64,000 bases of DNA, taken from a virus. Location: positions 81,244-145,243 of the IMG/VR virus record IMGVR_UViG_3300025141_013434; one strand, 5' to 3'. The notes under the pieces are model-generated. The model ran no database searches. It saw only the letters and a program-made list of their open reading frames with translations, and was not told where the DNA came from. Each line of letters begins with the position of its first letter. The stretch's first letter is position 1. Positions 2,194 to 28,703 of this stretch are shown piece after piece. The translations under genes were made by a program, and so were the position numbers.

Positions 2194-2807
2194 TTGCACG
2201 TCTCATAAATAAATTGAATATATCTCACCATTAGTATTTCTTTCACCTTATCATCTGCATTATACCATTCCCAAGAGGCTGTAGACTTCATTCCTTTTAA
2301 TTCTTTTTTTAGTGTTTCTATTTCTTCGTTTAAGATTTCAATTTGGCTATCATCAGGCGGTGGCAGTTCAACTTTTAGTTTTTCCGAAATCTCGTACAGA
2401 TCGCTCAAGTTCTTTTTATCCGCGGCTTCTTGAGCTACTTTAAATAATTCCTCTTTCTCTTTTCTCTCGTTGTCAGTCATTTCGACAAGCTTATCTGGAT
2501 GGATTTCTTTTGCTATATTTCTGAATATCTTTCTTACTGTACTAGAAGGTGGTTGAATTTCTTTTATTTCTTCTTTTTGAACTTCCTCTGCTCTCTTTTT
2601 CGAATTGTCTATCATCCCCTTCTTTGTAATATCCTCAAAAACCTTCCTATCTTCTTTTGAAAGGTTGTTTTTAATAAAATTATTAAAAGCCGAAGCAAAA
2701 TGGGCTGAAGCAGCTGATGCTAGATCTCTATTTATTTCTAATTTTGCTTTTAAGAACTTTAATTCTAAAAGCCGAAGATCGAACTCTTGCTTTGTCACGG
2801 AGGGCAT
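2190..2807 (-). CDS. J-domain (DnaJ-like) co-chaperone
   Basis: VRKIFRNIAKEIHPDK helix II plus HPD motif, followed by KEELFKVAQEA (helix III); coiled-coil flanks. Confidence 0.75.
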   Translation of the reverse strand: MPSVTKQEFDLRLLELKFLKAKLEINRDLASAASAHFASAFNNFIKNNLSKEDRKVFEDITKKGMIDNSKKRAEEVQKEEIKEIQPPSSTVRKIFRNIAKEIHPDKLVEMTDNERKEKEELFKVAQEAADKKNLSDLYEISEKLKVELPPPDDSQIEILNEEIETLKKELKGMKSTASWEWYNADDKVKEILMVRYIQFIYETCK

Positions 2808-4087
2808 TAAAAATCCAGTTTGAGCTTGAAAGTGTATTCTCTTTCTTCTGTCTTCCTCACTGGCTTAGCAAGCTTGGCTATACCGATAAGGTTTCTATCT
2901 TTATCATACACCCCTATCTTCGAAATGTAAACCTCTTTTTTATATGATCCTGTGGGATCCACATATTGAGAATTGTTAAGATTAACAAACTCCAAATCGT
3001 CAAATTCTTTAAAATGTTGACTAGAAGTTTGTGGAGTTTTTGATTGATCGAACCTCGTTACTGTTGGATTTGTTGAATTATTTAATTTGCCGCGGCCCGC
3101 ATGAGCCATCATCGTTACAGTTGGGATGTAGTTAACTCCCTGATATTCTAGCACGAATGCCGAACCTGTCACTACGCCGGCGGCTGTACCGTCAAAAGCA
3201 CCTGCGCCAAAGTCCGTCCACTTTGGAGTCGAAAAAGCCCCGCCAGTGTACTTATCTTGAAAATCTGCGTTTATGTTCCAGCTACCAGTAAGTGCAATAA
3301 AACCTTCATTGTACAAGACAACGCCAGCAACTTTGTCATTATAAGCAGTAGAAGACCCGGCAGTGCCGGATACCTGAATTAATTCGCCGTTCTTCTTCTT
3401 GTCCGTAATTTCTGCAGCTAAAGCGCCAGTGATATAAAATTTTAAAGATACTGATCCTTTTCTTATGGAGGATCCGTAAAATATCGAAGGTATCTCTATG
3501 AGATTTAGTAACTGGCGGCCCTTGTCCCAGTTTACATCAGGTGGTGCAGCTTCGACCGATGAGGAAGAAAACAAATAGTGTTTACTGATATTAGAGTAGC
3601 TATTGAAAACGTTCTTTAAAGCTAGAATATTTTTCTTACTATTAGCAACCTGGGTGACTTCACCTTGCACAAATCTGTCTGTTATCGATGCCGTTGGTGG
3701 GCCGACCGCAAAACGAGTCCTGGTTATACTTGCCGTAAGGGGGTAATTACTTTTTATAATATCCCCGTAATTGAACTGATTGGCAGAGTCAAATTCACTG
3801 GTACTTATTGTCTTAAATGCTGTACGAGCGCCGTTCTTTGTTACGAATGGAAAGATTGAACCTGAACCAGGAGGTTCTGATGTGCTTTGGTCAATTACCC
3901 TGTCTATATTGAGTTCATATAAACTCAAATATCCCTGTGTAGTTGCAAGCTCGTTACTAAGGAGTGATTTGCTAGTCTTTATTCCGTCAATATAAACTTT
4001 AGAATCGTATATAAAAAAAGATTTTCTGGGATATGCTTTTACTCTGTTGTAGAACAGGTCTTCTGAATTGAATTTGTAAAGTGGCAT
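2807..4087 (-). CDS. Virion structural protein (baseplate/fibre attachment); paralogue of 4103-5443
   Basis: C-terminal YISKIGVYDKDRNLIGIAKLAKPVRK...KLDF resembles the end of the tail-collar/fibre-attachment (DUF3751-like) domain. Shares IxKGS, GxVxYxxG and NxSxNPT blocks with its neighbour. Confidence 0.6.
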   Translation of the reverse strand: MPLYKFNSEDLFYNRVKAYPRKSFFIYDSKVYIDGIKTSKSLLSNELATTQGYLSLYELNIDRVIDQSTSEPPGSGSIFPFVTKNGARTAFKTISTSEFDSANQFNYGDIIKSNYPLTASITRTRFAVGPPTASITDRFVQGEVTQVANSKKNILALKNVFNSYSNISKHYLFSSSSVEAAPPDVNWDKGRQLLNLIEIPSIFYGSSIRKGSVSLKFYITGALAAEITDKKKNGELIQVSGTAGSSTAYNDKVAGVVLYNEGFIALTGSWNINADFQDKYTGGAFSTPKWTDFGAGAFDGTAAGVVTGSAFVLEYQGVNYIPTVTMMAHAGRGKLNNSTNPTVTRFDQSKTPQTSSQHFKEFDDLEFVNLNNSQYVDPTGSYKKEVYISKIGVYDKDRNLIGIAKLAKPVRKTEEREYTFKLKLDF

Positions 4088-4102
4088 AGCATTTCTTAAA
4101 TC

Positions 4103-5443
4103 TTAATAGTCTAGTCTAACTCTCAGAGTCAGTTCGTTTGTTGGATCTTTTCTAAGCGGTTCTGACAACTTCGCGGTTGCCATCAATTCATTGTCCGGAG
4201 AATATAAGCCAACTGAAGTTATATAAGATACCGGCATATCGCTTGGGCTGTTCTTTACCCTTATCTTACTTTCTGTCAAGTAAGTTGGGTTGGAACTATA
4301 ATTAAACTCATTGTGATTCGCACGACAGAAATAAACTGTTGAATTAAGTTCTGTCGTGTTGTTGAAAGAGATCTGCTTAATTCTGCGCCTAAGTGCGCTA
4401 CAACCAGTTTGAATTGTAGAACCCGTCAACATAGAGTATACATCTGCTTGAGCTAATGCTGTGATATCAATACCAGCTGCATCTACAATTTGCTTGTGCA
4501 TCATGCAGCTTGCTGAATTGAGAATACCTCCAGTAAGAGCATATACAGTTGGGTTTCCGGCCGCTTTGGCATGGTGGCCTCCGCCGGCGGTAGTAGACGC
4601 GGTAACAAAGCGATTTACTGCACCGCCGAAGCCGGGCCCAGTGGTCTGGTCCGTTGGGGCGGCAGCTTTTGCAAAAACTCTAGCATCCAAAACAACAATG
4701 CCAGCCTGATAGAATACCAACCCTATATTTCCTGGTTTGGTCGGATGAAGAGAGCCCGTTGTCGCGCCATGCGCTATAGCGCCGGATGCTTGCGTAGAAG
4801 AAGCTGACAATATTCCATATTCACCGGCGGGAGAGTTGATCCTGTAATCGTTTTGTGCATTTGTATCTTTTACAGTGATTGTTCGACCAGTATATTTTCG
4901 TAAATCACCGCTAGTCTCTGAAGGAGAGTCTGGTGAACCATAGTTCGGCGCAACACCGAGTTCCATGCTGAAGCTGCCTTTCTTTATTTCATCTTTGACC
5001 AAAAGCCTTGCAAAACTGATGAAAAATGCTTCATTGATCTTCCCTCTCTGACTATCCACAACATCACCGTCTTGATCAAACGCTCTAACGTTTCCGTGCT
5101 GATCGTGACCCATAAGAATCTGAGCCATTTGATTGTATATTGCTATCTTTTCTTCTTGCTCTGTTCTTGCAACTTCCGCAAGAACACCAGATAGTGCCGA
5201 CCCTGTACTGAACCCAAGAGTTATATCAAAAATGTGATTTGCGGAAGAACTAAGATAAGGGTAGTCATATACGCTTTGAAACATTTTGTGAGAATAATTC
5301 TTAATGTTCAACTCTGTCGAAAGACTACCGTCTTTGTTGTAAGTCCCGGAAACAAGAGACCCGGTAATCGGTATTGCCTCGTGCAACAAAGTCTTTGTTG
5401 TTACGATGTCACTGTTTAGGAAGGGTTTGAAAGTTGTCGCCAT
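4103..5443 (-). CDS. Virion structural protein (baseplate/fibre attachment); paralogue of 2807-4087
   Basis: C-terminal YITSVGLYSPDNELMATAKLSEPLRK...RLDY; IKKGS; GLVFYQAG; NYSSNPT. AGGA SD. Confidence 0.6.
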   Translation of the reverse strand: MATTFKPFLNSDIVTTKTLLHEAIPITGSLVSGTYNKDGSLSTELNIKNYSHKMFQSVYDYPYLSSSANHIFDITLGFSTGSALSGVLAEVARTEQEEKIAIYNQMAQILMGHDQHGNVRAFDQDGDVVDSQRGKINEAFFISFARLLVKDEIKKGSFSMELGVAPNYGSPDSPSETSGDLRKYTGRTITVKDTNAQNDYRINSPAGEYGILSASSTQASGAIAHGATTGSLHPTKPGNIGLVFYQAGIVVLDARVFAKAAAPTDQTTGPGFGGAVNRFVTASTTAGGGHHAKAAGNPTVYALTGGILNSASCMMHKQIVDAAGIDITALAQADVYSMLTGSTIQTGCSALRRRIKQISFNNTTELNSTVYFCRANHNEFNYSSNPTYLTESKIRVKNSPSDMPVSYITSVGLYSPDNELMATAKLSEPLRKDPTNELTLRVRLDY

Positions 5444-5458
5444 TTATACAGTCCTTTT

Positions 5459-6572: not shown

Positions 6573-9503
6573 TTATCTATCAACTATATTACTATAGTCT
6601 TTTGTAAAATTAAAATTTAAATCAATCTGTTTTCCTGTTGATTTAGATGTAATTCTAATTTTAAATTGCTTTCCCCACACAGGGTGATCTGAAATTCCAA
6701 CTGGGCCCGACTTGCCTGGAGCTGATTCCCAACTATTAAAAGACCCGTCTGCTGGTAAGTCTAGCATCTTCTGAGAAAATGCTGGTTCTATGAGAATGTC
6801 CTTCTTGAAGGACAATGTTCTTTTTCTTTCTTCTTTTGGAAAATAGAAAAGATCCGACTTCAAATATACCGCATCGAGATCGCTAACTAGCTCAATTTGA
6901 TATATGTTCGATGGATTAGAAACATGCCCATGGATATCCTCGGTTCTAAATGTGTACCAGTATTTTTTATTCGGAACTATTTTATCTATAAATGATCCCG
7001 CGGTTGCGTCAGATTCCACTCTGCCTATTTTTGATTGAAAAAACGAACCCCAAGAGGTTGGCTCTCGGTCTACCCTGAAAACTTCGAATACTTGAGTTGG
7101 GTCATCGTTTTTGAATTCTACTGCGGAATTCAATATTTCTTCTCCAAGTTCGGGATCTGCTCCTTGACTTATGGCTATCAAGCTAAACTGAGACACGTCA
7201 TCTGGCTCCAACACTACTGGCTTTGCTGCAAAATTCCCAGTCATGCTGTCCATATTGAACATCAGCCTCTTCTTGTCTCCCTTGAAAGGTATCACATCAA
7301 CATTCGGAGATATCGGGGGATTATCCATTGTTATAATTTCTTTAGAATATACCGGGTACTCCAATATTTTAACTGACGGAGTGTGAATAACTCCCATATA
7401 AAAATCCTGGAATCCTCGCTGGGATGCGCCGGTGGGATCCCAAAAATCAACAAGACCCGGAGAAGACATACAGTCAGAATAGGCGTATACCGTCCCGACA
7501 ACAACCACCACTTGATAAATTGTGTACCTATACCTCTTTGAGTATTTCACCTGACTATCTACCATTTTAATGACTTCTGTTTTATCATTTGTTGCAAGAT
7601 AGGTTACTTGTATTGTTTCTCCGGTTTCTGCATCTTTCTTTTCGATCTTAAAACCAACGACTTCTGAATGTGCTGGCTTTCCTCTCAAAATATCCATGAA
7701 AGATCTTTCATTTCTCTTGACGATATTCTTAATTCTTGTCTTCATTAAATTCTTCGTAAAAAGTAGTCTGAATTTCTCTACCGGGTGGAGATCTCTGCCC
7801 TCAACGTTGAACCAATCACGGAACAAGCTTGCAAACCACACTTCTCTGATCTTTGGGCTGCTAATTCTTGACAGAACTAACTCCTGAACATCTTCTGCGC
7901 TTTCGACAACTTGCTCTACTGCATTCCAGTTGTGATTGCGATTGAGACCTTGACGAGCCAAAATTCCGAAGATATTCTCGATAGCTGATGTATCTTCTCC
8001 TTCTCTCAGAGACTGGGCTATTAAAGATTTCTCTACTGAAGTTATTTGAATATCGGTGTACATCGGAAGAAACGGCCGATCGTTCTCGTAAACGGATCTG
8101 AATTCTTCTGAGGAAGGATCGCCATATGAAGATGTGAAAGGAGACCGGCCGGGCAATATACCGAAGACTTCTACGAGATTTTCTTCTGAAATTCTTTCCT
8201 CTGCGGTGAGGTGGCCATCTTCGTCTACTCTTATGTGTGCCCCGGGGCGTCGTATATAATAATTTGGCAGTTGCCTTTCTTCATAATTCTGTAAAACTAC
8301 ACTTTCGTAAAGATTACTGTAAAAATTATACTTCCCTTTTACAGAAATCGTAGGAGCGCCTCGAAGCTGATTATCTTCTGTCTCTTTTTCGCTAAAAAGA
8401 ATAGGAAAATTTGTGGCATAATCGTGAAAATAGTGTCTGCCGGTAAATGGAGGATTATACACCGGCGAGTTGACGCCATTGTGTTGTCTTGATACGGGTG
8501 ATTCGAGCTGCCATGGAACCGGGGTACCATAAAACGGTATAACTGGAAATAAATTTTCTGAAAAGTTGGACCTTTGAGTACTCCAGTTTTGATGATCGCT
8601 CGTGTATGTCTGTAAGCGGCCGTATCGGGCTCTTCGATGTTCGTCTCTCAATTCTCTCCAATTTTGTTCTATCATTTCACGAGGTGTGCCGTCAGAAAAA
8701 TCACCATTCTCTTGCAAAGTTGGTCGACCATACAAATAACATGGCCATTGCCATCGCTGTTCTGGAGTGAAGACATACGGAAAGCGTAACTTTAAAGGCT
8801 CATACCTGATCGGGCCTAGGCGTCTTTCGCTGCGAAACGGTGGTCGATCGAGCAAATCTTCCTTCTCCCAGAACCTTGTCGGGTTGATTGGACCATCATT
8901 GACAGCAAGCTGGCGAAAGCTTTGTTCGGAAACGGATTCGATGTAAGGAGCGCCGGCGTAGAGTTGGTCGTCCACCTGGGGGCCACGAAAAAGTATAGCT
9001 GAGGGATTATGAAAAGAGATGCTGTCCCTTCGATTTGCTTCAACTTGAGCCATGAGATTCGGAACAAATGTTTGTATTCCATTTTTCCAAAACTTTCCTG
9101 TCACATATCTAAAACTATCTATCATTGTTCGGCCATCGGGGCCCGGGACGTTCGCAGGAATTCCGGCCGGGTTCAATGGATCAAACTTTGCATTAGAGTA
9201 AAGATAGGTCGTTTCATCTGTTGGCTCTCCAGCCAAATTATGTGAATGAAATAGCCAAACGCTTTTGCCGGCTGCATACTCTTCGTGATGAAGTCCAAAC
9301 TCTTCCCGGTCTGGAGACACAGAAGAGAGCAAGATCTCTTCTGGTGCGCTCCCAGTTATGCCTGTCTCTGAATCCCCACCAGGGCCATTATTATCATCAA
9401 GATCGGTATTCTGATCGCCGCCATCACCTTCGAATGGGTCATCATCGCGAGAAACCGGAGGAGCGAGGCATGGATCTAATATATTGTCATTTTCTTCTGC
9501 CAT
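6573..9503 (-). CDS. Large structural protein with probable FN3/Ig-like C-terminal domains
   Basis: 976 aa; VVGFKIEKK...MVDSQVKYSKRYRYTI and FIDKIVPNKKYWYTFRTEDIHGHVSNPS match the FN3 tyrosine-corner pattern; acidic N-terminal tail; GAGGAG SD. Confidence 0.55.
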   Translation of the reverse strand: MAEENDNILDPCLAPPVSRDDDPFEGDGGDQNTDLDDNNGPGGDSETGITGSAPEEILLSSVSPDREEFGLHHEEYAAGKSVWLFHSHNLAGEPTDETTYLYSNAKFDPLNPAGIPANVPGPDGRTMIDSFRYVTGKFWKNGIQTFVPNLMAQVEANRRDSISFHNPSAILFRGPQVDDQLYAGAPYIESVSEQSFRQLAVNDGPINPTRFWEKEDLLDRPPFRSERRLGPIRYEPLKLRFPYVFTPEQRWQWPCYLYGRPTLQENGDFSDGTPREMIEQNWRELRDEHRRARYGRLQTYTSDHQNWSTQRSNFSENLFPVIPFYGTPVPWQLESPVSRQHNGVNSPVYNPPFTGRHYFHDYATNFPILFSEKETEDNQLRGAPTISVKGKYNFYSNLYESVVLQNYEERQLPNYYIRRPGAHIRVDEDGHLTAEERISEENLVEVFGILPGRSPFTSSYGDPSSEEFRSVYENDRPFLPMYTDIQITSVEKSLIAQSLREGEDTSAIENIFGILARQGLNRNHNWNAVEQVVESAEDVQELVLSRISSPKIREVWFASLFRDWFNVEGRDLHPVEKFRLLFTKNLMKTRIKNIVKRNERSFMDILRGKPAHSEVVGFKIEKKDAETGETIQVTYLATNDKTEVIKMVDSQVKYSKRYRYTIYQVVVVVGTVYAYSDCMSSPGLVDFWDPTGASQRGFQDFYMGVIHTPSVKILEYPVYSKEIITMDNPPISPNVDVIPFKGDKKRLMFNMDSMTGNFAAKPVVLEPDDVSQFSLIAISQGADPELGEEILNSAVEFKNDDPTQVFEVFRVDREPTSWGSFFQSKIGRVESDATAGSFIDKIVPNKKYWYTFRTEDIHGHVSNPSNIYQIELVSDLDAVYLKSDLFYFPKEERKRTLSFKKDILIEPAFSQKMLDLPADGSFNSWESAPGKSGPVGISDHPVWGKQFKIRITSKSTGKQIDLNFNFTKDYSNIVDR

Positions 9504-9513: not shown

Positions 9514-12500
9514 TCAAAAACCACCGTAGCCGCCGGGTCCAGATGTTGTAGTGCCACCAGTCGGTGCACCGCCGCCGCCGGGGGATGGTGGAGTGCCGCC
9601 GCCGCCAGGGCCAGGAAAACATTCATCATACAGTGTCGCCATGTCTTCGGGCGGGGGAGATTCCTCTCCATGATACTGACTCTCGTTTGGCATGTAGAAT
9701 ACTATTCCTGGATATTCTAAAAAGGTGTGAGCGTGGGTTTCTAAGCCCTCTATCGGCTCACACACACTTGTCAAGTATAGTGGATAGAAATATCCAGTCA
9801 CGCCACTAGTGTCTCCCGAATCGCTGGTGCCGAACAAATAGTAAGGCCCGCAACCACATACTTCCTGAGGTGCTGCCTGCCTTGATGCTTGGGTTCTCCT
9901 CCTATTCCTGCGGCGAGTGCGTTTAGTCCTGCGACTTGGAGGGCTAGCGGGGACTTCAAAATATGACTGACCCTGCGCTGGTCTAGTAGCGGAAGTGTTT
10001 CCTCCATCCGCCTCTCCAGTGTATGGCCGCCAATTTGCAGCGGTTTGGTTTCCCGCCTCAGTTGAAGAGTCCTGAGCATAACGAAGTCTGTATTGGCCGG
10101 ATAATACCCTACCAGCAGCAACCATGTCTTGATTTAGAGTGCTAAAAATTGGACGTCCTAAGTTTATATTCCCATCTGCATCCCTGGCAAAACCATCCAT
10201 CCTCTCCACTACCACTGCGGCGTCAGTAACTGCACGACTAACCGCTGGGTAGGGTACCGGGTCGGGACGGCTTTCGCCCCGGGGGCCGGCGAGGCCACCA
10301 ATACCTGGACCTAGACCCTGAAGGCCATCCGACGTTCCTTGCACCAAGTTGCTTGTTAATACGTCCGGATTTATTACGTTTCCCATGTCACTTACTAAAA
10401 CTCTCGATAAATCCAAAAAGCCAGTGTTGGCCCCTGCCAAAGAGCGCCAATGTTCATCCCAATCAAAAGGAAACCCTTCGGGTTCATCTGGTTCATTCCC
10501 CACGCCACATAACTCGCCCTCATTAGGAATAGCCTGTGTGTCATCAGATAGAAGTATTTCAGATGGCACCGTAACAGAAAAGTTAGTTACTGACGAAAGC
10601 TGTGCTGCCATTCTTGCCGTAATTGTATTTAGGGCGGTCGAGGGTTGATCAAAAGGATTAGCTGTGCCGGCTTGGCCATCATTTGGACTAGCAGCCTCAT
10701 TTACATCTCCCCAGTCAAACGACTGTATTGCAGGATCTTGTGTAGCTTGTCTAGACATATTGATGACATCCATAGCTCTATTGACCTCTGCTGCACCTGC
10801 TTGCCAATTGATCACAAAAGACCCCGGGGTCGTCATATTGTCCCCCCAGGTAAAATGTGAGTTCGTTTGCGTTGCATTGCCGCGGTAAGAGCTAAAAGTC
10901 AATACGGCAGAATTACCCAAATAACTTCTCATTGAGGAACCCCAACGTGTAGTTTCCGTATTCATTCTTCCTGCAAGATTTGCCGCTGTTATAACGGGAA
11001 AGGTAGAAGCTACTGATCTGGCCGTTGTCACCGGTGAGGGCAGGGGTAAGAGCGGAGGCCTGGGAACCGGATCTGTGGTGGGTGGCCTATCAAGAAATGT
11101 ATCTTCAGAAAGCTCGAAACCTGGGGTAGCAAAATCTTGAAGAGTCTCTGTCCTTTGTGGGTTGTCCGGACTGTCTTGGATGGTCGGCATTGTTGCCATG
11201 CTCCGGAGCCTAGCGCCGGCGGCGCGACGGTCAGCTTGACGTTGATTTTCGGCTAGCCACCGGTTTTCTTGTTCAACAAAACTAACAGAGTCGAGCTTTC
11301 TTTTGCTACAGTCGACATAATATGAACTGGGTTCGCTATCTCTGTGGCCGGTGAACCACCTCTTGACTCTCAATGTTCTATTTTTTCCGGCCGTGAGATT
11401 TCTTCTGCCGCCGATCTCGGAAGACAAGCTGGACTGATCTGCTGATGAGCCCCCGCCCAAAAGTTTATCTACTTCAGCTGACAGGTCTTTAAAGGATTTC
11501 AATATTTGTAAAATTTGCTCTGGTCTGGAATTGTTTGGATTGAGAAGGGTAGCGACAAGGCCGACCATTGCGTCATCCCTAAGTGAGATTGCAGAGTCGA
11601 CGGTGAAGAGGCCCTCCGAAACCGCGGCTTCGACAAAGTCGCCTTCGCCTTGTGCTGTCAAGTGTTCTGCAAATTTAGACGCCGAAATAATAAATTTCTT
11701 ATTTGCGTATACCAAGCCCAAAAGTTCAAAAAAAACTGCCTGCATAGCTTCAAAATCAAACCTCTCCATGGCTTCACTTACGAAAGAGGGTGAAAACTTT
11801 TTTGTTGCTGTGTTGTAATTTCCCACCGGAGTGAATCGAACTCTATCAACATTGAGAATTTCGTCTCGGGAGGGCCCATTGCCGCGAGTCTCCCTGAAGG
11901 ACTTTCCCGTTATTACTGGAATGTTTGCTAGGTTATAATATTCTTCCAATTGGAGAATTTGCTCTTTGAGTCGATTGAGTGCATGCTCGAAATATTCATA
12001 AATACTATCTTCGTATTCTAACTCTATTCCGTATTGATAAGTCCCATCAACTGTTTTCATTAGTGAATAATCGCGGCCATGGAAAATTCTATAAAACGGA
12101 AACAAGGGAGTACCTGCTAGTCTGGACTCTGACGAGTTGTCAATTGGCATAGGATCTTCGGGGTTGCCTGTTAACCAACTACTCAAGTTATCGAAATTGG
12201 CTCTCAATTGAGTCATAAGGTCTCTCACGAGCAAATCTGATATTGTTCCGGTCTCTCGACTATTATCGTTGGCACCCAAAAGAAACCGCGGGGCCGCAAA
12301 TGCCGCGGGTAAAATTGCGTCGACGAGGTTGTCTTCATGTTCATATAAATCTGAAGGTAAACCAGCGCGCTTCATTGACCTTTCGTTCCGATTTAAGAAC
12401 CATTCTTGAGATGCCTCTGCTACAACAAAATCTGGGGTGTTTTTGTCGAAAAGATCTTTTGCCGGAAAGCCAAGCGAATCAATTCCAATACTTCTGTCTG

Positions 12501-20800: not shown

Positions 20801-23800
20801 ACCCACCATCACTGGCACTAACAAACTCAGGAGAGCTTGCAGTTACGCTTGTAAGGGAGTAAGATGTTGGATCATCCTGCCCAGAAGGATGCGTAAAAGC
20901 ACTCTCTAAACGGTTGTAGGAGGCCGTAGTTTCCGTCGTAGCGGCCTTTATCCAAGCATACTGTAGGTCACTCTGGGGTATTTGATGTTGAACAAAATAG
21001 TTGTCATGTTTTGGCCTCACGCCCGGTTCGGTTGTCGTGTCCGTTCCCACATACTTCGTATTTCTATGAATTTTGTGAGGGTTGGCAAATTTCTCAAAAA
21101 ATGCATGCGAAAATACTGGAGAGCTTCCTGTTGTATGCGACCCGCTGATGGTGAAACTTGTTGGGTCTTGAAGCGGCGTTATATATACAAACTGCTCTTT
21201 GACTGAGCAAGATATTGGCAAGAAGTCTTCTTCTGCTGCCTTTCTCAGAGAGGTATACAGCGAATAAGCCAGTGCCTTAGCTGTAGAGATACCATTTACG
21301 CCGATGACAGTAGGAGAGGAAGCGGTCGCTGGAGTTGCTGTTTTAACTTTCGCATTATACTTTTTACCATTTTCAAATTCAAACGAAACAGACGGAATAT
21401 GCAAACTGTCCTTTAGTCCCGTAACGCTACAAGTTATTGCTGCAGGGCCGTAAGTATATCCGTGCCTTCTTGTGGTATTCATATAATGGCCATCAAGAGG
21501 GTATCTTACCGCTAGATTTCTATAGTTCAAGCAATTATAAACCGAATATTGGTTCGTTGGGCGATCAAGAAATGCACCGCCAAAGGCATCGCCGGCAGTC
21601 TCTGGGCCGCCGGGGGCTGAAAATCTATTAACAAAATAAGTTTTTCTTATCGGCCTTGATACAATTTTTGTCGAGTCTTTAACTGTGGCGATACTATCGC
21701 CGGAGCCAGAACCGAAGAGGTCTGTTTTGTTTCCACCTCTCCAGGCCGTTTCTCTAACTAAGAAAACCTTGTTTACTTCCGGGGAGGTACCTTGAACAAT
21801 TTGATAATCATGCTGATAATTACCCGCCTTGATACTTCCGCTCTTTGCATACTGTCTTATATTGCGAATATTAACTGGTCGTTTGGCCAAAGGCTCCCTC
21901 AAAACATGAGCGCGGCCGGCGTAACTACTGGTGGAAGAAATCTTGAAAAGAGACGGTGATTGTCCATGGAAGTTCGGGCCGTACATATCTGGATTTATAA
22001 CATAAAGGTTCCCTTGAGACATGGTAATGAAGAACCCTTCTATTCTCGTTGTCCTATCATCAAGACCTCTTAACGTCACTCCCTCTGCACCATCACTATC
22101 AGATGAATGGCTTGCAGTGTGATTTAAATCAACATGCCTGTGAAAATGGCCACCAACATGTCTTTCTGTGAACGGGCCCTGCATAGGGATTTCCCGATCA
22201 TCACCATATGCGTCCGAATGAAGATTCGTGATTTCCACACCTTGTTTGAAATTTCTATAAACCTGCGCTTTGTAATCTTTTGGATCGTCGATAGAACTAC
22301 TAAAAAGACTAAAAGGCACCACTGTATCCAAATCATAATCATTCTTTGTATAGCTGACGTCGACCTTTCCTTTAAACCTCTTCTTTTCGTAAACTATCGC
22401 TCCGCCGGCAGATGGACCTGAGTGCCACCGGCCATTGTCAAAATATTCGGTGACGCGATGGCGGCCGCCGTATCTAGGCTTATTTATATCTGAACAGTCT
22501 CTTCCTACGTCAATATCAGAGCCGCTGATTCTTATATACTGCCTACTTTCTGGATGTGTTGTGCCGAGAAAGAAATCCTTTTTCTTATTATAATGAAAAT
22601 TATCGCCGCCGTGGATTGCTGGCATCACAGAAACTGAAAGTCTATATGGTCTCGAAAGTTTGTTGATAACATACGTCGAACCTGAAACTTGCTTATTGGC
22701 AACTTTTCTTATGTTTTCTCTGTCTGAATTAAATCTACGAAGAGGAGGATCCGCAGACGCCGGGTCCACAGACGCCGAAAGTGGGAATTCCTTTGTTCTT
22801 GACGCCCTATCTCTCCACCAAAGGCAGTTTTCGTCTTCGGCCCGGGCGTTCTTTCCACCAGTGAACGCAGATGGTACATCCGGGTTGGAATTAGCTAGCC
22901 AATTTGCCTGATCGCTGAGCGCAATAGATGTATTGCCGCGCTCACCACCAATATCTTGAGTTAAAAGTACTACTCCACTACTCGGATTAGTTGCTGTAAT
23001 TTTTAAAGCTGACGCATTAACCGAGGAGACCATTATACTAGCCATACCCGCTGCATTATTAGTAGGCGGGTCCATAGCTATAGCTCCAGCAACTGAAGCA
23101 CCATCACCAGTACCAGAAGCATTATCAACTTCAAAAGTAGCTGATGTTCCTACAGCGTCAGTAAGTGTTATCGTAGTTTCTTCATTTGCTTTATCGGTAA
23201 AAGTCCATGTTGCAGTGGCTGCAACTGGGACCGACAATTCAGGCAACGGGGCATGCCCATGTTCCCAGTCATACAACAGTTCATTTATGCCCAAAATGTG
23301 ACCAACAGGTTCTTTACTCTTCATATCAAGAGTTGGGAACTTTGTCCAATATTTGCTCCTCTCAAGTAGGTGGCTCTCGACCATGGTCCGGATATCTTCC
23401 GAGAATCTAGCTGTGGCTGGCTTGAACTGATCTAGCATGACTGAAAGAGATGCATCTATCCACTTATAAAACTCCACATATTTCTCTAAGTCCATATCGT
23501 TGGCGATCTTTCTAAAGAAAATCTGTCTGAGTTTCTCCATCGCCTTGTATTGCGGGCGATACCTGTTAACTGGGTCTCCTATTATATCTCCGAAGTCAGA
23601 TATCGAAGCAAAGAAGTCCAACATCTCTTGCGAGATAGTGTGGTACATACTCTTTTCCATAGAAAAGAAGTGAGATACCGGGGTGGATTCTCTGGTGAAT
23701 GTTTGATCATCTCTTGTTAGCGGCTTCACCATGTTTGAAGAATTAATCTGTTCTGGGTGTCTCTTTCTTGCAGAATATAAATACTCCACATCAACACTGG

Positions 23801-26729
23801 CTGTGGTGCTAGCTTCAAAGAATCTTCCTTGTCCAGGATGATAATTTCCTACTATCTTTCCAGCCCAACCATAGTTGTTCTTGAGGTACACCGAACCAGA
23901 AGAAAAATCGGAAACTACAAATATGCCGTACTTATCGGATCCCGTAACTTGTGCAAAATCCCAATTCAAAGCCAATGTATCAATTTTTGGAACCCTAGAG
24001 TTGTCACCTTTTATGAAAGTAAAGCTGTCTTTATGTGGACCAGGAACACCATAAGACATTGGGTCAATTGCGTGTGCCTCAATTGTGTCATTATCCAAGT
24101 AAGATATCCAGTGCCTTAGGGACGAAAATTTGACATCAGTAGATGTTTGCACAGATCCTGTAAAGTTTTGCCTGTGCGCGCCGATATAAAACCTCTTTGA
24201 AAATTCGTGAAACCTTTTACCTTGGGCCTGAGTCAAAGAAGATGATATGAAGAATTTTTCTTTTATTTCACCTGCGTCAGTTTGGACTCCGAAGAATTCC
24301 ACATTATATCCCCTGGCCATAGAACCAGATACCATGTCTCCAAACAAGTGGGCCTTGGGAGCAACTCTTACTGCGAAGTTCCATTTACTGTTATCGTAAA
24401 CATCGTAATAATAATCTGTCTCTATGCCTGGGATAATCCCAGAAGTCGACCTCAGGATAAATTTTGCGTCCTTTGAATTTTTCTTGAACTTTTTAGCATA
24501 AACCTCGAAGTTTGCGAAATCTTTAGCAGAAGTTCTCCAAGTGAAAACGTCAGCTGTTGTGCTTGTGAAAGTCTGCGGCACTGTATGGCAACCAAAAAGT
24601 GAACTTGACAAGGGCGTAGAGAAATGGAAAGCAGAATTTATGTCAAAATGTTTTGGAAAAATTACTTCTGCTTCTGTCGTAAAAGCCATGCCAGATGCGG
24701 GAAACGTAGATGCAGTTATATAGCCAGAAAGAGCCCATGGGGCCGCCTTATGGCCGCCATATCCAAGATATGCATGCGGTGAAGACCCCGGATCAAAACT
24801 AGAACTAGCCTGATAAACAGTTGCTTTTTGATTTGATTCTTTATTGAAATTTATAGTTGGCTTCTTTATAGCACCTATTCTATAGTTTTCTTTGATAGGA
24901 TAAGTTACCCCATCTGCGTAAACGTTGATGTTTATTAATTCTTCGTCTATACCATAACAACGAAGAACATTTCTAAAAGCCCTTTCCGTGCCTTTCGATT
25001 TACATATTTCAACTAAATTATTATAAATATTTCTGTATATTAAATTCTTAACATCATGAAGATTTTGTTCAAAAGTCCTGTCCTCTGTTCTCTTTCCTAT
25101 CGTTTCAAGAACTTCGGCATCAACAAAGATCTCTGGTGCGTCGACGCCCAAAGAGCCAAGCATACGATCCATAAAGGGCAAAGGCTTGTGTTTGTAATCT
25201 GAATATTTTCTGTGTTTAAGTTCATTAAGGGCCTCTATCTTTAAAAATAAACTATCAAAATAGCTGGCAATAATATGAACCATCTTCTTAAGATCACCAT
25301 TGTCATCTTCTAATATCCACAAGGGAAACGAATGATACAAGCATGCTGAGTTGACCAAGTCATGGGACTTTCCTTGGGACTCTTTTTCGTCTTTTAGGGA
25401 AATAATATCCGGATGTTCAGAATGAACTATGGGGTCCTCGAATTCACTCAAAGATGCAGATGACTCAATTATTGCAGATCTAGTGGAGCGACCTGCTGAA
25501 GAATACCCTGTCCAGGCACCATTAGAAACCCTTCCCGAATAATCTAAAACTATTTTATCAATTGTACTATCTTGAACTATACCTTCGTTGAACTTATAAT
25601 ATATTCCGAGATCAGTATTCCCCTCTTCGTTGTTTGCACCTCCTCCAACTTGAGTAAACCAGTGTCTCCCGATGTCTTTAGACGACCTCTTGGTTTTCCA
25701 AAACCGAAATTCATCCAAAGAGCCAGATAACTTTCCGAGACCTAAAGCGGGTGTTCTTACCGCGGTCGAATCTTCGATATCTGATCCGGTACCGTCTTTG
25801 ACGGCCACCAGAGACCCAATGGTCCCAATAAGGGCAGTGTTTATACTACCTATTGAGGACCCGGCCAGAACAGATCTGTGTAAATTGCCATCAATGTAAA
25901 GTCTGGCGTTTATTTTACTACCCGTATTTTGCATGGCGATTGCGTAATGATGCCATGTATTATCTGAACCACTGGCATTGACGGGAGATGCTCCGCCACC
26001 TGGAGTGCCTTCGATTCCCAGAATTAAATTTTTAAATCCGGATGAGCCCGATCGATATGTTATTTGGAATGGAGACTTCGTATTATCTGTTCTTCCGTCC
26101 AGTTCCACAGTCAAGCGCCCGTAGCCGTGATCACCTGGGAAGGAGCCGGTGGTCCAAACGTCAAAAATTACTTCTTTTGTTGTCAGACCGTTGTAACCAC
26201 CCTTCTTGAGCCAGAACTCAACGGTATTTCCGCGGTTGCCGTCTATTTCCAGGTTAGAAGTTCTGTTGCTAGCCGTGTGCCACACATTATCTAAGTGCGG
26301 GCCGCCTTTTATGTAAATGTACTCTTTTGTGGCTGGGTTACCGTAACTTCCAGACTGGGATACCTTTGAACCCCAACCAGAAGGAGAAAACCTTACATAA
26401 CCCGTTGTTCTGGGATATTCGTTTCTGAAAATATGTAAATCTAGGCCGTTTGATTCGTTTAGCCACTTCTCTTTTTCGTAAAGAGATCCATCATATGGAT
26501 ATGTTTGGTGAGTTCTCTTAATGGCTACATCATAATACTCTTCTGCCATGCCGAACTTCGCAAAGTTTGAGGCAGTGTAGTAATCAATCGGAGGCTCCAT
26601 CCGATTCCTATTTTCAATGTAGGCGTCTACAAATCTATCCGACTCTACATCTTCTAAGGCCTGATTTGCGCTGGCTTTAGGGAGAACAGTGTTGGATTTT
26701 ACACCTTTAAAAAGCTTCTTAAGACTCAT
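14856..26729 (-). CDS. Giant (3957 aa) baseplate protein: P2 gpI/T4 gp7-like segment plus LamG/ConA-like domains
   Basis: LamG signatures TVEFWLK...WHHYAI...LYIDG...LDEFRFW...YYKFNEG (about 25581-26230) and SISMWY...WYHLCVT...FYIDG...IGEVSIWN...GWYRM (about 17622-18269). YFD...LGSLG...NNLVEICKSKGT...VLRCYG (about 24950-25340) resembles gpI/gp7 wedge proteins. Confidence 0.7.
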   Translation of the reverse strand: MSLKKLFKGVKSNTVLPKASANQALEDVESDRFVDAYIENRNRMEPPIDYYTASNFAKFGMAEEYYDVAIKRTHQTYPYDGSLYEKEKWLNESNGLDLHIFRNEYPRTTGYVRFSPSGWGSKVSQSGSYGNPATKEYIYIKGGPHLDNVWHTASNRTSNLEIDGNRGNTVEFWLKKGGYNGLTTKEVIFDVWTTGSFPGDHGYGRLTVELDGRTDNTKSPFQITYRSGSSGFKNLILGIEGTPGGGASPVNASGSDNTWHHYAIAMQNTGSKINARLYIDGNLHRSVLAGSSIGSINTALIGTIGSLVAVKDGTGSDIEDSTAVRTPALGLGKLSGSLDEFRFWKTKRSSKDIGRHWFTQVGGGANNEEGNTDLGIYYKFNEGIVQDSTIDKIVLDYSGRVSNGAWTGYSSAGRSTRSAIIESSASLSEFEDPIVHSEHPDIISLKDEKESQGKSHDLVNSACLYHSFPLWILEDDNGDLKKMVHIIASYFDSLFLKIEALNELKHRKYSDYKHKPLPFMDRMLGSLGVDAPEIFVDAEVLETIGKRTEDRTFEQNLHDVKNLIYRNIYNNLVEICKSKGTERAFRNVLRCYGIDEELININVYADGVTYPIKENYRIGAIKKPTINFNKESNQKATVYQASSSFDPGSSPHAYLGYGGHKAAPWALSGYITASTFPASGMAFTTEAEVIFPKHFDINSAFHFSTPLSSSLFGCHTVPQTFTSTTADVFTWRTSAKDFANFEVYAKKFKKNSKDAKFILRSTSGIIPGIETDYYYDVYDNSKWNFAVRVAPKAHLFGDMVSGSMARGYNVEFFGVQTDAGEIKEKFFISSSLTQAQGKRFHEFSKRFYIGAHRQNFTGSVQTSTDVKFSSLRHWISYLDNDTIEAHAIDPMSYGVPGPHKDSFTFIKGDNSRVPKIDTLALNWDFAQVTGSDKYGIFVVSDFSSGSVYLKNNYGWAGKIVGNYHPGQGRFFEASTTASVDVEYLYSARKRHPEQINSSNMVKPLTRDDQTFTRESTPVSHFFSMEKSMYHTISQEMLDFFASISDFGDIIGDPVNRYRPQYKAMEKLRQIFFRKIANDMDLEKYVEFYKWIDASLSVMLDQFKPATARFSEDIRTMVESHLLERSKYWTKFPTLDMKSKEPVGHILGINELLYDWEHGHAPLPELSVPVAATATWTFTDKANEETTITLTDAVGTSATFEVDNASGTGDGASVAGAIAMDPPTNNAAGMASIMVSSVNASALKITATNPSSGVVLLTQDIGGERGNTSIALSDQANWLANSNPDVPSAFTGGKNARAEDENCLWWRDRASRTKEFPLSASVDPASADPPLRRFNSDRENIRKVANKQVSGSTYVINKLSRPYRLSVSVMPAIHGGDNFHYNKKKDFFLGTTHPESRQYIRISGSDIDVGRDCSDINKPRYGGRHRVTEYFDNGRWHSGPSAGGAIVYEKKRFKGKVDVSYTKNDYDLDTVVPFSLFSSSIDDPKDYKAQVYRNFKQGVEITNLHSDAYGDDREIPMQGPFTERHVGGHFHRHVDLNHTASHSSDSDGAEGVTLRGLDDRTTRIEGFFITMSQGNLYVINPDMYGPNFHGQSPSLFKISSTSSYAGRAHVLREPLAKRPVNIRNIRQYAKSGSIKAGNYQHDYQIVQGTSPEVNKVFLVRETAWRGGNKTDLFGSGSGDSIATVKDSTKIVSRPIRKTYFVNRFSAPGGPETAGDAFGGAFLDRPTNQYSVYNCLNYRNLAVRYPLDGHYMNTTRRHGYTYGPAAITCSVTGLKDSLHIPSVSFEFENGKKYNAKVKTATPATASSPTVIGVNGISTAKALAYSLYTSLRKAAEEDFLPISCSVKEQFVYITPLQDPTSFTISGSHTTGSSPVFSHAFFEKFANPHKIHRNTKYVGTDTTTEPGVRPKHDNYFVQHQIPQSDLQYAWIKAATTETTASYNRLESAFTHPSGQDDPTSYSLTSVTASSPEFVSASDGGFLDAGDYSSVHGYRAYAETKANASFLPVDFVGMNQVIVEPVHLDSNKIGSDNIEWNSNGYVVGSDTDSDGNTIRQRRLLAEPNGHLTGEEGDARIFYGYLGYHDHLYQTDVLFLNSLIHNRQGPYGWPSWKQLRVAQHPIARKLRENNIYAPSVEQIDPNSPAKALSYESNRGGNYSWPDSIDHRSATTTRGSSASRYRLTESVVSSKFGPITQLSVLETQVLPPIEERGTPREEFFASNPSVTSEARIEDLLDTNGAASRGLGRRDIKELRFTYGNALASFSNKQMRLLFGINEGRMRERLNIPITRNSVLNTYFETVYPRDENSYLKKARSRSQFRVDWWKQNRADRLVSQPSGSTSRGEGITGSVWPLDAQVNFGTANEISLGTDDPNTFGEGQLVSNISIFRSGSRGGGYPITRIPSASAVYSRKFPETTYQVILNCASHVSNKNLLYGSSDSPGYNTGDYLLMYPPAGDALPLFLFFSSNATTGNTLKANVSDPKHLVWVVPLSGTVTNASQLSKAIVDNFAEAPSGWKDLVTVHRDSSNNKVLIKFKGVWENSYLSGHYLGEDWAGDYLGNQFDDADARLTKLLRPTSKVSRHLAGGAKWQVGEMSGRNPFPYEDYEDWQQVIRRKAKDFSILPEYRISEHMPFYVDSSKVEDPFFTCHPDGIFELTGAADDFTDSSKTDFFKVYGHSDFLRHFDEVTADQATVNKHPGMLTLRCKAMKKFLPYEGFYPVQRTLQLATLMSESYARKSIMPETQEAVDVTGIRPMLSAFYAPGICYNSIKSGLAVDYPIFEPARDRPFNKFVTAFADADDNYVNIGMSSEWANLMTGSFAKQTGSAGGLSISMWYCDLTGDPDADADNKTSGSLLVFKDDGSNSQTEGIQFTKHGGRIMLSMFNDSSNYKKWWTKPYKSITTTMKWYHLCVTKKFDGSAPSFYIDGTAVTTQGGTTAAGIIGSASNLVELDLAMDSTGSEGGVGYRGNCTIGNHRYAHTQTNHSLNSMKCGIGEVSIWNTDLSVESVAGLAGGGVLHRGPFRPDLCVEDSDAGNLIGWYRMGNDAGYIYTGTGSVHMTNNSPLINHAMPMYEDVGHAYASAGGHPEAKFTSVTKGDFGNFSDLWSAASDKAASGYGITLLGDGLLNGVAGRLTGSYNYPSWITGSAYNETADGGIPRIGSASWGISGPRRIPGGSGGFHKGHGAQNYWTKWHKDNGIGGVQKVHRVPFEALIDPIKALKPNKIDTVGMTPNQARIRERFAFYDNEVHPSSSFSPAGFLRSKIRPDADKDGKYDVGGSDYDIFWGTPCTSSVLSCSLDLSVARSLPYTTYSKAANNFYSECVNFFLDGRETTVIASSDHLREIVDHGKVYKMRLRLTRPSKLDFPIYNRPSSFGPPVDASPPDNVSTSGLFMGHGFAPYTPPHYDSYAEVEYTFNPGQSTGSTATDRTSFDTIESVLASITADNRYQERGPSIKYGRFIRATGSYNKSWGSGMTDSTLAQTATAGVDGVISTATGSLHKTHAMQLSASFYGLDFSEDSAIPIYEDREEENNDPRNPVRRDIIRKSWAVQSKWEVPNLDFSKVTPTAPRPHHIGTAKGMWHQTGTYDTPVARIEIRPPEDPQYGNLASLLGMHFQKKGLKVGEDSGTGRLITRPIGQLPEQRKIKEAVVAIPFTEGEGKARSFFNLPRPEVYQSVVNLGHAQYKRQFLEESKQAYVNTIMQNGSSDNEDMNRIVREFRDSNGFTDGNRGAWDATVDRLIRVANEQGMPVRSNIQKMVKSMMNYVLPPKFNFLKYNNTNKNYVRPFLMYVFEFEHTLSKKDVAYIWQNTAPDLALNMFYNNDRDTLVTQASVTHDLSMTGDDMYGGTFGENVKWLVFKVKQRAENNYFKKMKRDRLPANHPHRALNVEDDIFEYGYNWPYDYFSMIELVRLDTEVVYNTPELSAQGTTDLLQGVNRKYSGLPGGDFQDPFDAINYGFPTGESDPDSEE

Positions 26730-28703
26730 TTACTTTTCTACTCTAAATTTAAATACCTGCTCTTGTACAATATTTTGACCGCCATGGTCATAAGCCAGTT
26801 GTATGGCATAAGAATAATCCGACTCGAACATGGACATGTCTAAATCAAAATAGTTGCCCTTCTCGTCATAAGACATTCTCGTATATTTGCCCTGCTGGCC
26901 TGAACCCGTACCAAATGGTATTACATCAAACTCGTCAATAATTCTATACACTCTATAATATGCATTTTCTATATATTCTGCTTCTGCAGTGTTCTTGGCA
27001 ACATTGTAAATATTTGGCTGCCAATCTTTTTGCCTAACATGTACTCTAAATCTTGGCTTATCTCCTTGGGAATATGCGCTTTTCAAGTTTGTTATCTTGG
27101 TAACGTAGCGATTACCCGGATTATAATGCAAAGAGCCAAACTTCTTGACATCGAATACAGAACCAGTTACTAGCTGAATTCCTTGTATTACTTTGGTAGG
27201 CTTGCTCCAAATATCAAAAATCTCTTTTTCAGAGCCAGTAAATGCAAAAGATGCGGAATATATTCCGGTCGAAACCCAACCCCCACTTATCACAGTAGCT
27301 CCGTGGACGGTGACGCCGCCGCCGATGGGCAAACTTTTCGCCTTTATAATTTTATTCTTTATATTGCCAGAAGGAAAAACCTGCACATGTATGCTTGTAT
27401 GTGCATCGTTACTTCCGGAATTGCCGCCCAAGACTGGTATATTCTTTAGTTTGCCTCTTACATAATTGTACAGATACAGAGTGTTTAAATTGTCTTCTCC
27501 AGATGCCAAAGAACTGCTCATAAAGAAATTTCCGCGGTCGTCTCTTTTTGAGCTGTCCCAACGAGCTTCGATCAGAGGCCTCTTATAAAAGAATTCACTA
27601 GTACGAGAAAAGAACTTTTTAGTATAATAAGATCTGCCTCTGGTCCCGTCTTCGTAGGAGGATTCCGCCGTAGATGAACCCGATAACCTTATCATCACGC
27701 CGTGATTTTCTCTATCGGGGTCTGTAGCACTTTCTGCTTTTATCCATTCTTCCACTAGTGAAGTTATGTTGACCTCCAAATTCTCGGGACCTTTTGTAAA
27801 AGACTGCACATAATGTGGAAGGTTTCGACCAGCAGTATAACCTATTTCATGAAAATCTCCGCCAGGATTCGTCCACACGGTCATGCCACCAGTTTGTTTC
27901 GTTTCTATAGAAAGATGAGCGGTACTCACCGACCCCTGATATGACCCGGAAATACCACCCTCAGATGTAACTGTTATTCTTACTGTTGCTTGGGTTGCTT
28001 CTGCTGTGTCGCCGGCGGTCCAAGAGGCAGAGAGGCCCGTTACAGTTGTACCATCTTGAGAGCCCGTGTTTACCGCTCTGGCGAGTTGTTTTGCAAACTC
28101 TTTGGCAGTGTCAATCGCCGCACCAGTAAGAGGTACTGTAACCTCGGTTCCCTCTGGGTTGGGCCCACCATCGCTGGATTCTACCATGAACCAGAAATTG
28201 TATTTTGTACCTTCTTGATTATGTATCGAAAAATATTTATTTTGATAATTGGTCTTTGTGTTTGTGAGGAATTTAACATCGGTTATGTGCTTCTGTTTTG
28301 TAGTGTTAGCAACGTCCCAGTTCGCAACGCCCTCGTCGCTATATTGTTCCATATCCAGGCCAGTGCCCTCCGTGAAAGATCTAGAGAGGGGCAAGATTTG
28401 TAATTTATAATCTTTAGGGAGAGTTTGTCCATGAGGACAATTAAAAAGCCTCAAATAAAAATTCACACTTCCAGAGTGCGGAATAGTTCCTGCGTTCCTG
28501 TCCGATAAGATTGTAGATACCGGAAACTTCAAAAGGGCGCGAGACTTCTCCACAGAAGAGGTATTTGCTTGACCATATATTGAAAACACCTCTAATACAT
28601 CAGATGCGCCCATATTGGAGCCAGTTGCAGAAGAAGAAAGATTCGTCTTGTAAGCATTGCTTATGGTTGTATCCGACGTTGCTGTATATCTCTTTATTGT
28701 CAT
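26730..28703 (-). CDS. Structural protein with DNRLRE-like beta-sandwich domain
   Basis: SRALLKF, FYLRLF, VNITSLVEEWI, NHGVMIRL, FFSRT...RPLIE pattern; located directly after the gp6-like gene. Confidence 0.55.
   Translation of the reverse strand: MTIKRYTATSDTTISNAYKTNLSSSATGSNMGASDVLEVFSIYGQANTSSVEKSRALLKFPVSTILSDRNAGTIPHSGSVNFYLRLFNCPHGQTLPKDYKLQILPLSRSFTEGTGLDMEQYSDEGVANWDVANTTKQKHITDVKFLTNTKTNYQNKYFSIHNQEGTKYNFWFMVESSDGGPNPEGTEVTVPLTGAAIDTAKEFAKQLARAVNTGSQDGTTVTGLSASWTAGDTAEATQATVRITVTSEGGISGSYQGSVSTAHLSIETKQTGGMTVWTNPGGDFHEIGYTAGRNLPHYVQSFTKGPENLEVNITSLVEEWIKAESATDPDRENHGVMIRLSGSSTAESSYEDGTRGRSYYTKKFFSRTSEFFYKRPLIEARWDSSKRDDRGNFFMSSSLASGEDNLNTLYLYNYVRGKLKNIPVLGGNSGSNDAHTSIHVQVFPSGNIKNKIIKAKSLPIGGGVTVHGATVISGGWVSTGIYSASFAFTGSEKEIFDIWSKPTKVIQGIQLVTGSVFDVKKFGSLHYNPGNRYVTKITNLKSAYSQGDKPRFRVHVRQKDWQPNIYNVAKNTAEAEYIENAYYRVYRIIDEFDVIPFGTGSGQQGKYTRMSYDEKGNYFDLDMSMFESDYSYAIQLAYDHGGQNIVQEQVFKFRVEK

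Follow-up and report, generated by a model that had tools for sequence, protein, structure and literature searches.

The window analysed here is the final 64 kb (64,000 nucleotides, positions 81,244 to 145,243) of the 145-kb IMG/VR viral contig IMGVR_UViG_3300025141_013434, whose completeness is estimated at 68%. Coordinates labelled "window" count from the start of this stretch and those labelled "contig" from the start of the whole record, which also carries the handle G000. All genes of the window lie on the minus strand. PHROG matches revealed a contractile-tail baseplate module, including a 132-aa gp25/W-like protein, and downstream of the gp25-like and gp6-like genes lie four proteins (3957, 657, 446 and 426 aa) that are rich in the tripeptide motif [ST][GAS]S, the subject of this analysis. 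In the features listed below, the expected number of matches is the mean of composition-preserving shuffles of each protein, and family totals, observed versus expected, are summed over six genomes.

Window 2807-4087, minus strand: 426-aa virion protein, motif-rich; 9 observed versus 1.9 expected, z 5.5.
Window 4103-5443, minus strand: 446-aa virion protein, motif-rich; 8 versus 2.3, z 3.9.
Window 6573-9503, minus strand: 976-aa protein, contrast; 2 versus 1.9.
Window 9514-13776, minus strand: 1420-aa protein, contrast; 1 versus 3.8.
Window 13776-14852, minus strand: 358-aa protein, weakly motif-rich; 3 versus 0.6, family 6 versus 1.9.
Window 14856-26729, minus strand: giant 3957-aa baseplate-distal protein, motif-rich; 53 versus 15.5, z 9.8, 46 of the matches being [ST][GA]S.
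Window 26730-28703, minus strand: 657-aa protein directly after the gp6/J-like gene, motif-rich; 14 versus 3.3, z 6.1.
Window 28703-30514, minus strand: gp6/J-like baseplate wedge protein (603 aa; PHROG baseplate wedge families), contrast; 1 versus 1.1, family 5 versus 5.9.
Window 30928-38772, minus strand: 2614-aa protein between the hub/spike and gp25-like genes, contrast; 3 versus 3.2, family 9 versus 11.1.
Window 38787-40973, minus strand: 728-aa spike/hub-region protein, motif-free contrast; family 0 versus 5.0.
Window 45545-64000, minus strand: variable sugar-synthesis island recognised from Pfam, cut by the contig end.

An earlier sequence-only reading of this DNA had counted about 53, 14, 8 and 8-9 matches in the giant, 657-aa, 446-aa and 426-aa proteins, against 3, 2 and 1-2 in the 2614-aa, 976-aa and 1420-aa proteins. 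Exact recounting gave 53, 14, 8 and 9 against 3, 2 and 1. The excess survived both composition-preserving shuffles and shuffles within local blocks of 20 or 40 residues, under which z was still 5-11 (10.5-11 for the giant) and only 0-2 of 1000 shuffles reached the observed number. The giant protein has neither DNA nor protein repeats and its sites are dispersed, so that the description of the matches as singletons and not tandem repeats was borne out, as was that of varied codons, whose usage follows the background. The varied codons together with the lack of repeats ruled out a cause at the DNA level, and the former indicate that the motif is selected at the protein level. An S/T/A/G-rich stretch of 125 aa in the giant (residues 1168-1292) does exist and does hold no match, as stated; but it had been used as an argument against composition, for which it is uninformative because only 1.1 sites are expected there. 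In the lineage-specific insertions of the giant, the number of residues was too small to judge motif density.

An unbiased scan of all tripeptides in the four proteins placed TGS at the top (28 observed versus 3.3 expected), followed by SGS (19 versus 4.4), TAS (11 versus 2.8) and SAS (12 versus 3.6). The mirror forms SGT (5 versus 3.3) and SAT (4 versus 2.8) were at chance, and in the control structural proteins and the rest of the proteome the tripeptides were at expectation. Because SGS, SAS and SSS are palindromic, forward-only and mirror-only tripeptides were counted apart: T[GAS]S occurred 43 times versus 9.9 expected and S[GAS]T 13 times versus 9.9. Serine at the second position, which had been included in the motif alongside G and A, was weak (TSS 4 versus 3.8, SSS 10 versus 5.0), whereas G and A stood.

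Pooled analysis of the residues at 529 sites in 47 proteins showed how strict the motif is. At position 1, T was enriched 5.4-fold and S 4.6-fold, every other residue reaching at most 1.4-fold; at position 2, G was enriched about 5-fold and A about 3-fold; at position 3, S was enriched about 5-fold and T merely 1.3-1.9-fold. Before G-S only S and T were in excess, and after T-G or S-G only S. Just ahead of the motif, L, V and I were enriched, in agreement with the beta-type residue that had been noticed there, and proline and charged residues were depleted in the flanks. [S/T]-[G/A]-S is a short ordered motif with strict residues, in excess beyond composition; the outward-facing virion proteins of this uncultured marine phage, and of its lineage as a whole, have it at four to six times the chance level. 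A shared repeated domain was ruled out as its source, the carriers being without detectable homology to each other; the similarity between the 426-aa and 446-aa proteins is confined to 40 aa at the C-terminus. From these comparisons the motif appears to have arisen independently in mutually non-homologous proteins.

The sequence-only reading had confined the enrichment to the four proteins and had pictured a coat on the exposed baseplate. Both statements proved too narrow. Upstream on the contig, outside the window, the motif is also carried by the sheath, the 436-aa gp13-like neck adaptor, a fibre of 1072 aa and the 594-aa major capsid protein; the genes for portal and terminase lie there too. 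The same orthologues were enriched, and the same ones were not, in the complete 190-kb relative G001 and four further genomes (40-55% identity); relatives with the same enriched orthologues show 40-67% identity overall. The family totals were as follows.

Giant protein family (7 orthologues): 216 observed versus 51.3 expected.
657-aa protein family: 68 versus 11.5.
446-aa protein family: 36 versus 8.3.
426-aa protein family: 28 versus 7.0.
Fibre family: 95 versus 23.
Sheath family: 49 versus 17.5.
Neck adaptor family: 19 versus 6.1.
Capsid family: 18 versus 8.1.
976-aa protein family: 1 versus 6.7, motif-poor.
1420-aa protein family: 7 versus 8.7, neutral.

The families of the gp6-like, 2614-aa and 1420-aa proteins, the portal and the terminase were neutral. 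Three families were almost free of the motif over the six genomes, namely those of the 976-aa (1 versus 6.7), 728-aa (0 versus 5.0) and 1048-aa (contig 78590-81736; 1 versus 4.8) proteins. This near-absence may be avoidance by proteins that need to stay unmarked, a comparison whose statistics are weak because the families were picked after the fact. No family or fold could be assigned to the 976-aa and 1420-aa proteins, and an atlas search for the former gave nothing usable.

Two other observations concern tripeptides elsewhere on the contig. C-D-G is also in excess genome-wide (10 versus 2.2), likewise in the genomes G009 and G010; a plausible source is a 691-aa protein with MopE-like Cys/Asp metal-binding repeats (PF11617) at contig 29116-31191 (L191:15116-17191). 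An S-rich, low-complexity open reading frame (ORF) of 201 aa on the plus strand (contig 21101-21706, outside the window) has 24 motif and 25 mirror matches and is probably a spurious frame or a linker outside the signal.

Among the matches listed for the 657-aa protein, all 120 homologues were enriched, with a median of 5.9-fold; T[GA]S occurred 523 times in them versus 97 expected, and the mirror 125 times. In the alignment of this family the sites at 27, 77, 483, 489, 513 and 599 fall in columns conserved in more than 100 of 121 sequences, where S and T interchange at position 1 and Ser is fixed at position 3. The S, T, G and A residues of the motif are more conserved than the same residues elsewhere in the protein (for S, 0.64 versus 0.41). 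Orthologues share sites above background, 10 of 11 at 69% identity and 23 of 42 for the giant at 55%, while other sites are gained and lost with the density constant.

The AlphaFold2 (AF2) model of the 657-aa protein is a chain of immunoglobulin (Ig)-like beta-sandwich domains, for which a fold search gave generic Ig/macroglobulin-like matches only; 9 of its 11 sites are in coil and 4 of the 11 in loops of low predicted local distance difference test (pLDDT) score. The sheath model matches solved sheaths with Z 22-25, and its 11 sites all fall between residues 144 and 665, none of them in the C-terminal core alignable to all sheaths. The modelled sites occur in coil, strand ends, strands, one helix end and low-confidence loops, coil and low-confidence loops being favoured, and among the folds of the carriers are the Ig-like sandwich, the add-on domains of the sheath, the capsid and the fibre. 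The marked proteins are those of capsid, neck, sheath and fibres; the portal, the terminase, the gp6-like protein and the spike are unmarked. This pattern would fit exposure on the particle, as judged at the domain level.

The virion proteins of T4, 13,877 aa in total with the sheath, the capsid, Hoc and every fibre counted, contained 15 sites versus 25.7 expected, a ratio of 0.58. In three phages with related sheaths but, like T4, lacking the glycosyltransferases (GTs) described below, Paraglaciecola phage GD1, cyanophage Syn30 and Vibrio phage VPALA, the ratios were 1.03, 1.35 and 1.11, with no significant protein. In nine GT-bearing or in-clade genomes, observed/expected ranged from 1.64 to 2.24, with 1-7 significant proteins each. 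The motif is therefore a property of the lineage and not of the folds. Our analysis thus indicates that the observation is solid and more general than first stated.

The 45.5-64 kb block had been named as the source of the O-glycosylation that would act on the motif. Its Pfam content includes, on the sugar side, Ugd, two epimerases, NeuB, a CMP-transferase, WecB/NeuC, a PIG-L deacetylase and two GT2 proteins, and for tailoring two formyltransferases, sulfotransferase-like proteins, FkbM methyltransferases, PhyH, GDSL and a carbamoyltransferase. By these domains it reads as a genuine sugar-nucleotide and tailoring cluster. Every relative has sugar genes at this position, but the genes of this island are common to G001 only, the other relatives having different ones; GT2 was present in 3 of 5 relatives and NeuB in 10 of 39 related records. 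The cluster GT2 proteins (205 and 313 aa) and the weak GT-B-like proteins (301 and 340 aa), shared with G001 only, were rejected as a clade-wide reader of the motif, and NeuB, not being universal, was rejected as a clade-wide factor. Maf (MptE-like, PF01973) was found in none of the five relatives and not among the window genes. Because no cluster transferase is shared beyond the closest relative while the motif is clade-wide, the cluster cannot be the reader of the sequon and could at most elaborate a glycan, so that this part of the sequence-only reading fell.

Between the spike genes and the island lie a 264-aa basic helical protein (window 44038-44832) and a 97-aa protein (window 43724-44017), both kept in all six genomes at 51-79% identity and without family match. 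The 264-aa gene was also tried as the reader enzyme and rejected, as it looks like a late transcription or sigma-like factor. In the stretch of the island past the end of this contig, G001 has a GT9 heptosyltransferase-like gene of 277 aa (98586-99419; L014:18586-19419). Bacterial autotransporter heptosyltransferases are members of the GT9 family.

A search with PF00534 revealed two adjacent GT4 genes of about 420 aa each in 5 of 5 large relatives. Both are orthologous across the relatives, with 55-62% identity for the first (GT#1) and 47-51% for the second (GT#2), and score 43.3 and 28.2 bits against the Pfam cut-off of 26.4. The E-x7-E signature is conserved in both (EGFGLATLE and EGFGLPLFE), and together with the domain scores it predicts a pair of retaining GT4 glycosyltransferases. 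The best solved relative of GT#1 is chlorovirus B736L (3oy2, E 1.8e-7), a weak match covering the GT-B C-terminal half only. The pair occupies 93.5-96.8 kb of G001, where the island ends on its far side, with GT#1 at 93472-94737 and GT#2 at 94713-96830; the corresponding immuto genes are gp181 and gp180. The contig analysed here carries no copy, and by synteny with G001 its position would be a few kb past the contig end. GT#1 was found in 20 of 25 related records; in G008 the contig ends inside the island, and the four remaining records without it are incomplete contigs (34-67%). A search for relatives in which the pair had been lost found none. In the annotated clade core no other recognisable transferase, kinase or ADP-ribosyltransferase was seen, the core otherwise comprising replication, nucleotide metabolism, chaperones and proteases. 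Ahead of the pair, every relative has an accessory block (in G001 at 88915-89712, L014:8915-9712, and neighbouring genes) with a trypsin-like peptidase, a PIN-PhoH fusion, a 257-aa protein of unknown function and a PD-(D/E)XK nuclease; Flavobacterium phage immuto has the same nuclease-GT-GT order.

Among GenBank phages, neither DNA nor protein matched the spike region of the window or the 657-aa protein. Of the cultured phages, Microcystis phage Mel-JY01 and immuto come nearest in the sheath, with 36-40% identity over part of the protein. A GT#1 homologue was found in 7 of 50,697 GenBank phage records, namely immuto (four records), Mel-JY01, an uncultured 484-kb phage and Rhodothermus phage RM378. 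Immuto, Mel-JY01 and the 484-kb phage are also among the closest sheath relatives, while RM378 is absent from those listed. All three cultured phages, immuto, Mel-JY01 and RM378, carry the adjacent pair, and in all three the motif occurs in a subset of large proteins, which in immuto lie downstream of the gp6-like gene. The 1053-aa fibre of immuto has 53 sites versus 12.1 expected, with T[GA]S 26 times and the mirror once; its sheath and capsid protein are marked as well. The apparent mirror excess in Mel-JY01 is due to one collagen-like (G-T-S)n protein. Co-occurrence of the motif with particular glycosyltransferases, which had been put forward as a check, was thus observed: every complete or large genome with the motif has the GT4 pair, and the unmarked controls lack it. 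The pair is co-inherited with the motif, reaching deep branches, and the association is not phylogenetically independent. Because the GT-bearing phages all belong to one structural lineage, it amounts to roughly one evolutionary event.

In the immuto fibre (NC_055915.1, 97658-100819; loci L142-L143), the motif arrays are in the N-terminal half, and S-H-A-E-G-like units recur in the C-terminal part, recalling the head repeats of trimeric adhesins. In Mel-JY01 (PP395634.1, loci L181-L190), the protein with long collagen-like (G-T-S)n repeats is 805 aa long, and GT#1 is split into two ORFs of 190 and 302 aa.

The motif behaves in a way that supports a signal read in trans, and we consider the conserved GT4 pair outside the window a better candidate reader than the cluster within it. 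The reading we prefer, to which we give a probability of about one half and for which the support is circumstantial because the association comes from a single lineage, is that hydrophobic-[S/T]-[G/A]-S-small/hydrophobic would be a lineage-specific acceptor signal on the outward-facing virion proteins of a large group of aquatic myoviruses, read by the conserved GT4 pair. Of the acceptor signal as it had been claimed, the parts that stood are the order and strictness of the motif, its presence in unrelated proteins, its retention over divergence, its lineage specificity and the constant position of sugar genes in the relatives; the named cluster as its reader did not. The statistics of the motif, its conservation and its inheritance together with the GT pair are observations; that the proteins are modified, which residue would accept the sugar and how the enzymes would share the work are inferred. 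Late in infection, the GT4 pair would recognise the tripeptide in the cytoplasm on folded or folding structural proteins and O-link a conserved core sugar, or two, to serine, most likely the invariant third-position Ser, the preceding small residue being needed for access. The variable island next to the baseplate genes would then build a strain-specific outer glycan, for which this window would supply nonulosonic acid synthesis and activation, GT2s, and sulfo-, formyl-, methyl- and carbamoyl-transferases. Buried or non-particle proteins would stay unmarked. The broader proposal, of a major, abundant aquatic myovirus lineage with its own general protein O-glycosylation that has a strict [S/T]-[G/A]-S sequon, a conserved two-enzyme core and a hypervariable island (nonulosonic acids, sulfation, formylation, methylation) giving strain-specific coats, in effect phage serotypes, is tentative, and we lean slightly away from it.

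Several points weigh against the GT4 pair reading a glycosylation signal. The 976-aa and 1420-aa proteins, presumed to be outer ones, are consistently unmarked, and the evidence for exposure is at the level of domains. The presence of the pair in this phage is itself predicted from synteny with G001, and the association of motif and GT pair may be a single inherited coincidence. The pair adjoins PhoH-PIN and PD-(D/E)XK nuclease genes, and phage GTs can glycosylate DNA (Pyle et al. 2024, as cited in PMC12619734). In the literature we found neither a report of this motif nor published data on a glycan attached at it, and a marine-phage proteomics paper reports no phage glycosylation. Finally, many of the sites occupy alignment columns of deep conservation, the hydrophobic flanks would be at home on the edge of a beta strand, and [ST][GA]S[FY] recurs periodically in the immuto fibre, in arrays with a spacing of 4-9 residues, all of which would suit a structural role as well.

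These last points lead to the view that the tripeptide is a structural unit of strand edges or tight turns, or a building block of fibre shafts, kept for folding or packing without any modification. The arrays could be a shaft repeat as well as a dense row of acceptors, hydrophobic residues in the flanks alternate in the manner of a beta strand and several sites are at strand ends. However, one and the same strict tripeptide is in excess in proteins that differ in fold and have no homology to each other, and the same folds in T4 (sheath, capsid, Ig-like Hoc and fibres) have no excess. The local structure is mixed, from coil and strand to helix end and disordered loop, and sites are gained and lost at constant density. 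Also, the generic turn formers D and N are not in excess at position 1, nor is T at position 3; this would be surprising if the motif were purely conformational. We therefore regard a purely structural origin as unlikely, at roughly half the weight we give to glycosylation by the GT4 pair.

Another possibility is that the motif is read in trans by something else, such as a host enzyme, phosphorylation or acylation, or an assembly chaperone, with the sugar island and the GT pair serving DNA-base glycosylation or host-surface remodelling. The DNA-metabolism genes beside the pair, an island content that varies like a surface-polysaccharide locus and the single-lineage nature of the motif-GT link would agree with this. 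Soluble GTs also build lipid-linked glycans with host initiating enzymes. On the other hand, the recognisable genes of the clade core include no kinase, ADP-ribosyltransferase or further transferase, and a shared host enzyme is unlikely because the cultured members infect hosts as different as Bacteroidota, Rhodothermus and cyanobacteria. Glycosylation of hydroxymethyl-pyrimidines requires a thymidylate-synthase-type hydroxymethylase, and this enzyme (PF00303) was absent from five clade genomes, two of them complete, which argues against the DNA sub-case, other routes to it being possible. On balance, we think such a different reader improbable.

An origin of the excess in composition, in local patches rich in S, T and G or in DNA bias is excluded: these three residues are somewhat more frequent in the carriers than in other proteins, and the reversed motif as first defined gave 33 versus 15.5 until the palindromic tripeptides were set aside, but the mirror-only forms are at chance, the block shuffles leave z at 5-11, the codons are varied, the enrichment is limited to S/T at position 1 and S at position 3, and it is reproduced in the 120 homologues among the matches listed and in twelve genomes.

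If glycosylation by the GT4 pair is true, a defined O-linked sequon would make it possible to predict the sites in marine phage genomes, of which there are thousands, from their sequences; about 3,500 homologues exist of the 657-aa family alone. Large aquatic phages commonly have sugar islands without export genes, and these would be explained. The sequon would also point to a variable particle coat, which could affect adsorption, aggregation, grazing, enzymatic attack or host defence. The lineage has cultured members (immuto, RM378 and Mel-JY01), so the claim is testable at the bench.

To our knowledge, phage virion glycosylation is known chemically from mycobacteriophages only, and without a sequon described. 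Their phage-encoded GTs are reported to glycosylate the virion (Freeman et al. 2023, as cited in PMC12619734). As in our proposal, soluble phage GTs there decorate their own capsid and tail proteins in the cytoplasm. The glycans there, whose chemistry is proven, are reported at the C-termini of capsid and tail-tube subunits, with no tripeptide sequon described. The system proposed here, known from sequence alone, would differ in its dispersed ordered tripeptide, its many myovirus proteins and its large variable sugar island. Chloroviruses also glycosylate their own capsid (PBCV-1 Vp54), and B736L of NY-2A is a putative GT (PMC4691112). They are similar in having virus-encoded cytoplasmic machinery and an atypical acceptor signal, as well as in the resemblance of GT#1 to B736L. 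They differ in that their glycans are N-linked and the virus is eukaryotic, the acceptor of B736L being itself unproven.

Flagellin is O-glycosylated with nonulosonic acids by pseudaminic and legionaminic acid (Pse/Leg) pathways and Maf transferases, without a known sequence sequon. Its cytoplasmic O-linkage to Ser/Thr on the surface domains of an exported polymer is similar to our proposal, and NeuB, NeuA and NeuC-type genes are found in the window; however, Maf was in 0 of 5 relatives and NeuB in 10 of 39 records. GtfA and GtfB O-link N-acetylglucosamine to serine-rich repeat adhesins, GtfB being a non-catalytic partner. Similarly, the phage pair consists of two adjacent GT-B genes, the Ser acceptors in the S-A/S-x repeats resemble SAS and SGS, and the immuto arrays are of a similar kind; but both phage GTs keep the catalytic E-x7-E, and the phage sites are mostly dispersed singletons. 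No GtfA or GtfB chain was among the sequence matches of the pair to solved structures. Short O-sequons are known as well: Bacteroidota use D-[S/T]-[A/I/L/V/M/T] in a periplasmic, lipid-linked system, and the eukaryotic xylosyltransferase is Ser-specific and needs a Gly next to the acceptor. These differ from the present motif in residues, order and compartment, and no homologous enzyme was identified here; what they have in common with it is a three-residue signal, a hydroxyl acceptor and a small or hydrophobic neighbour.

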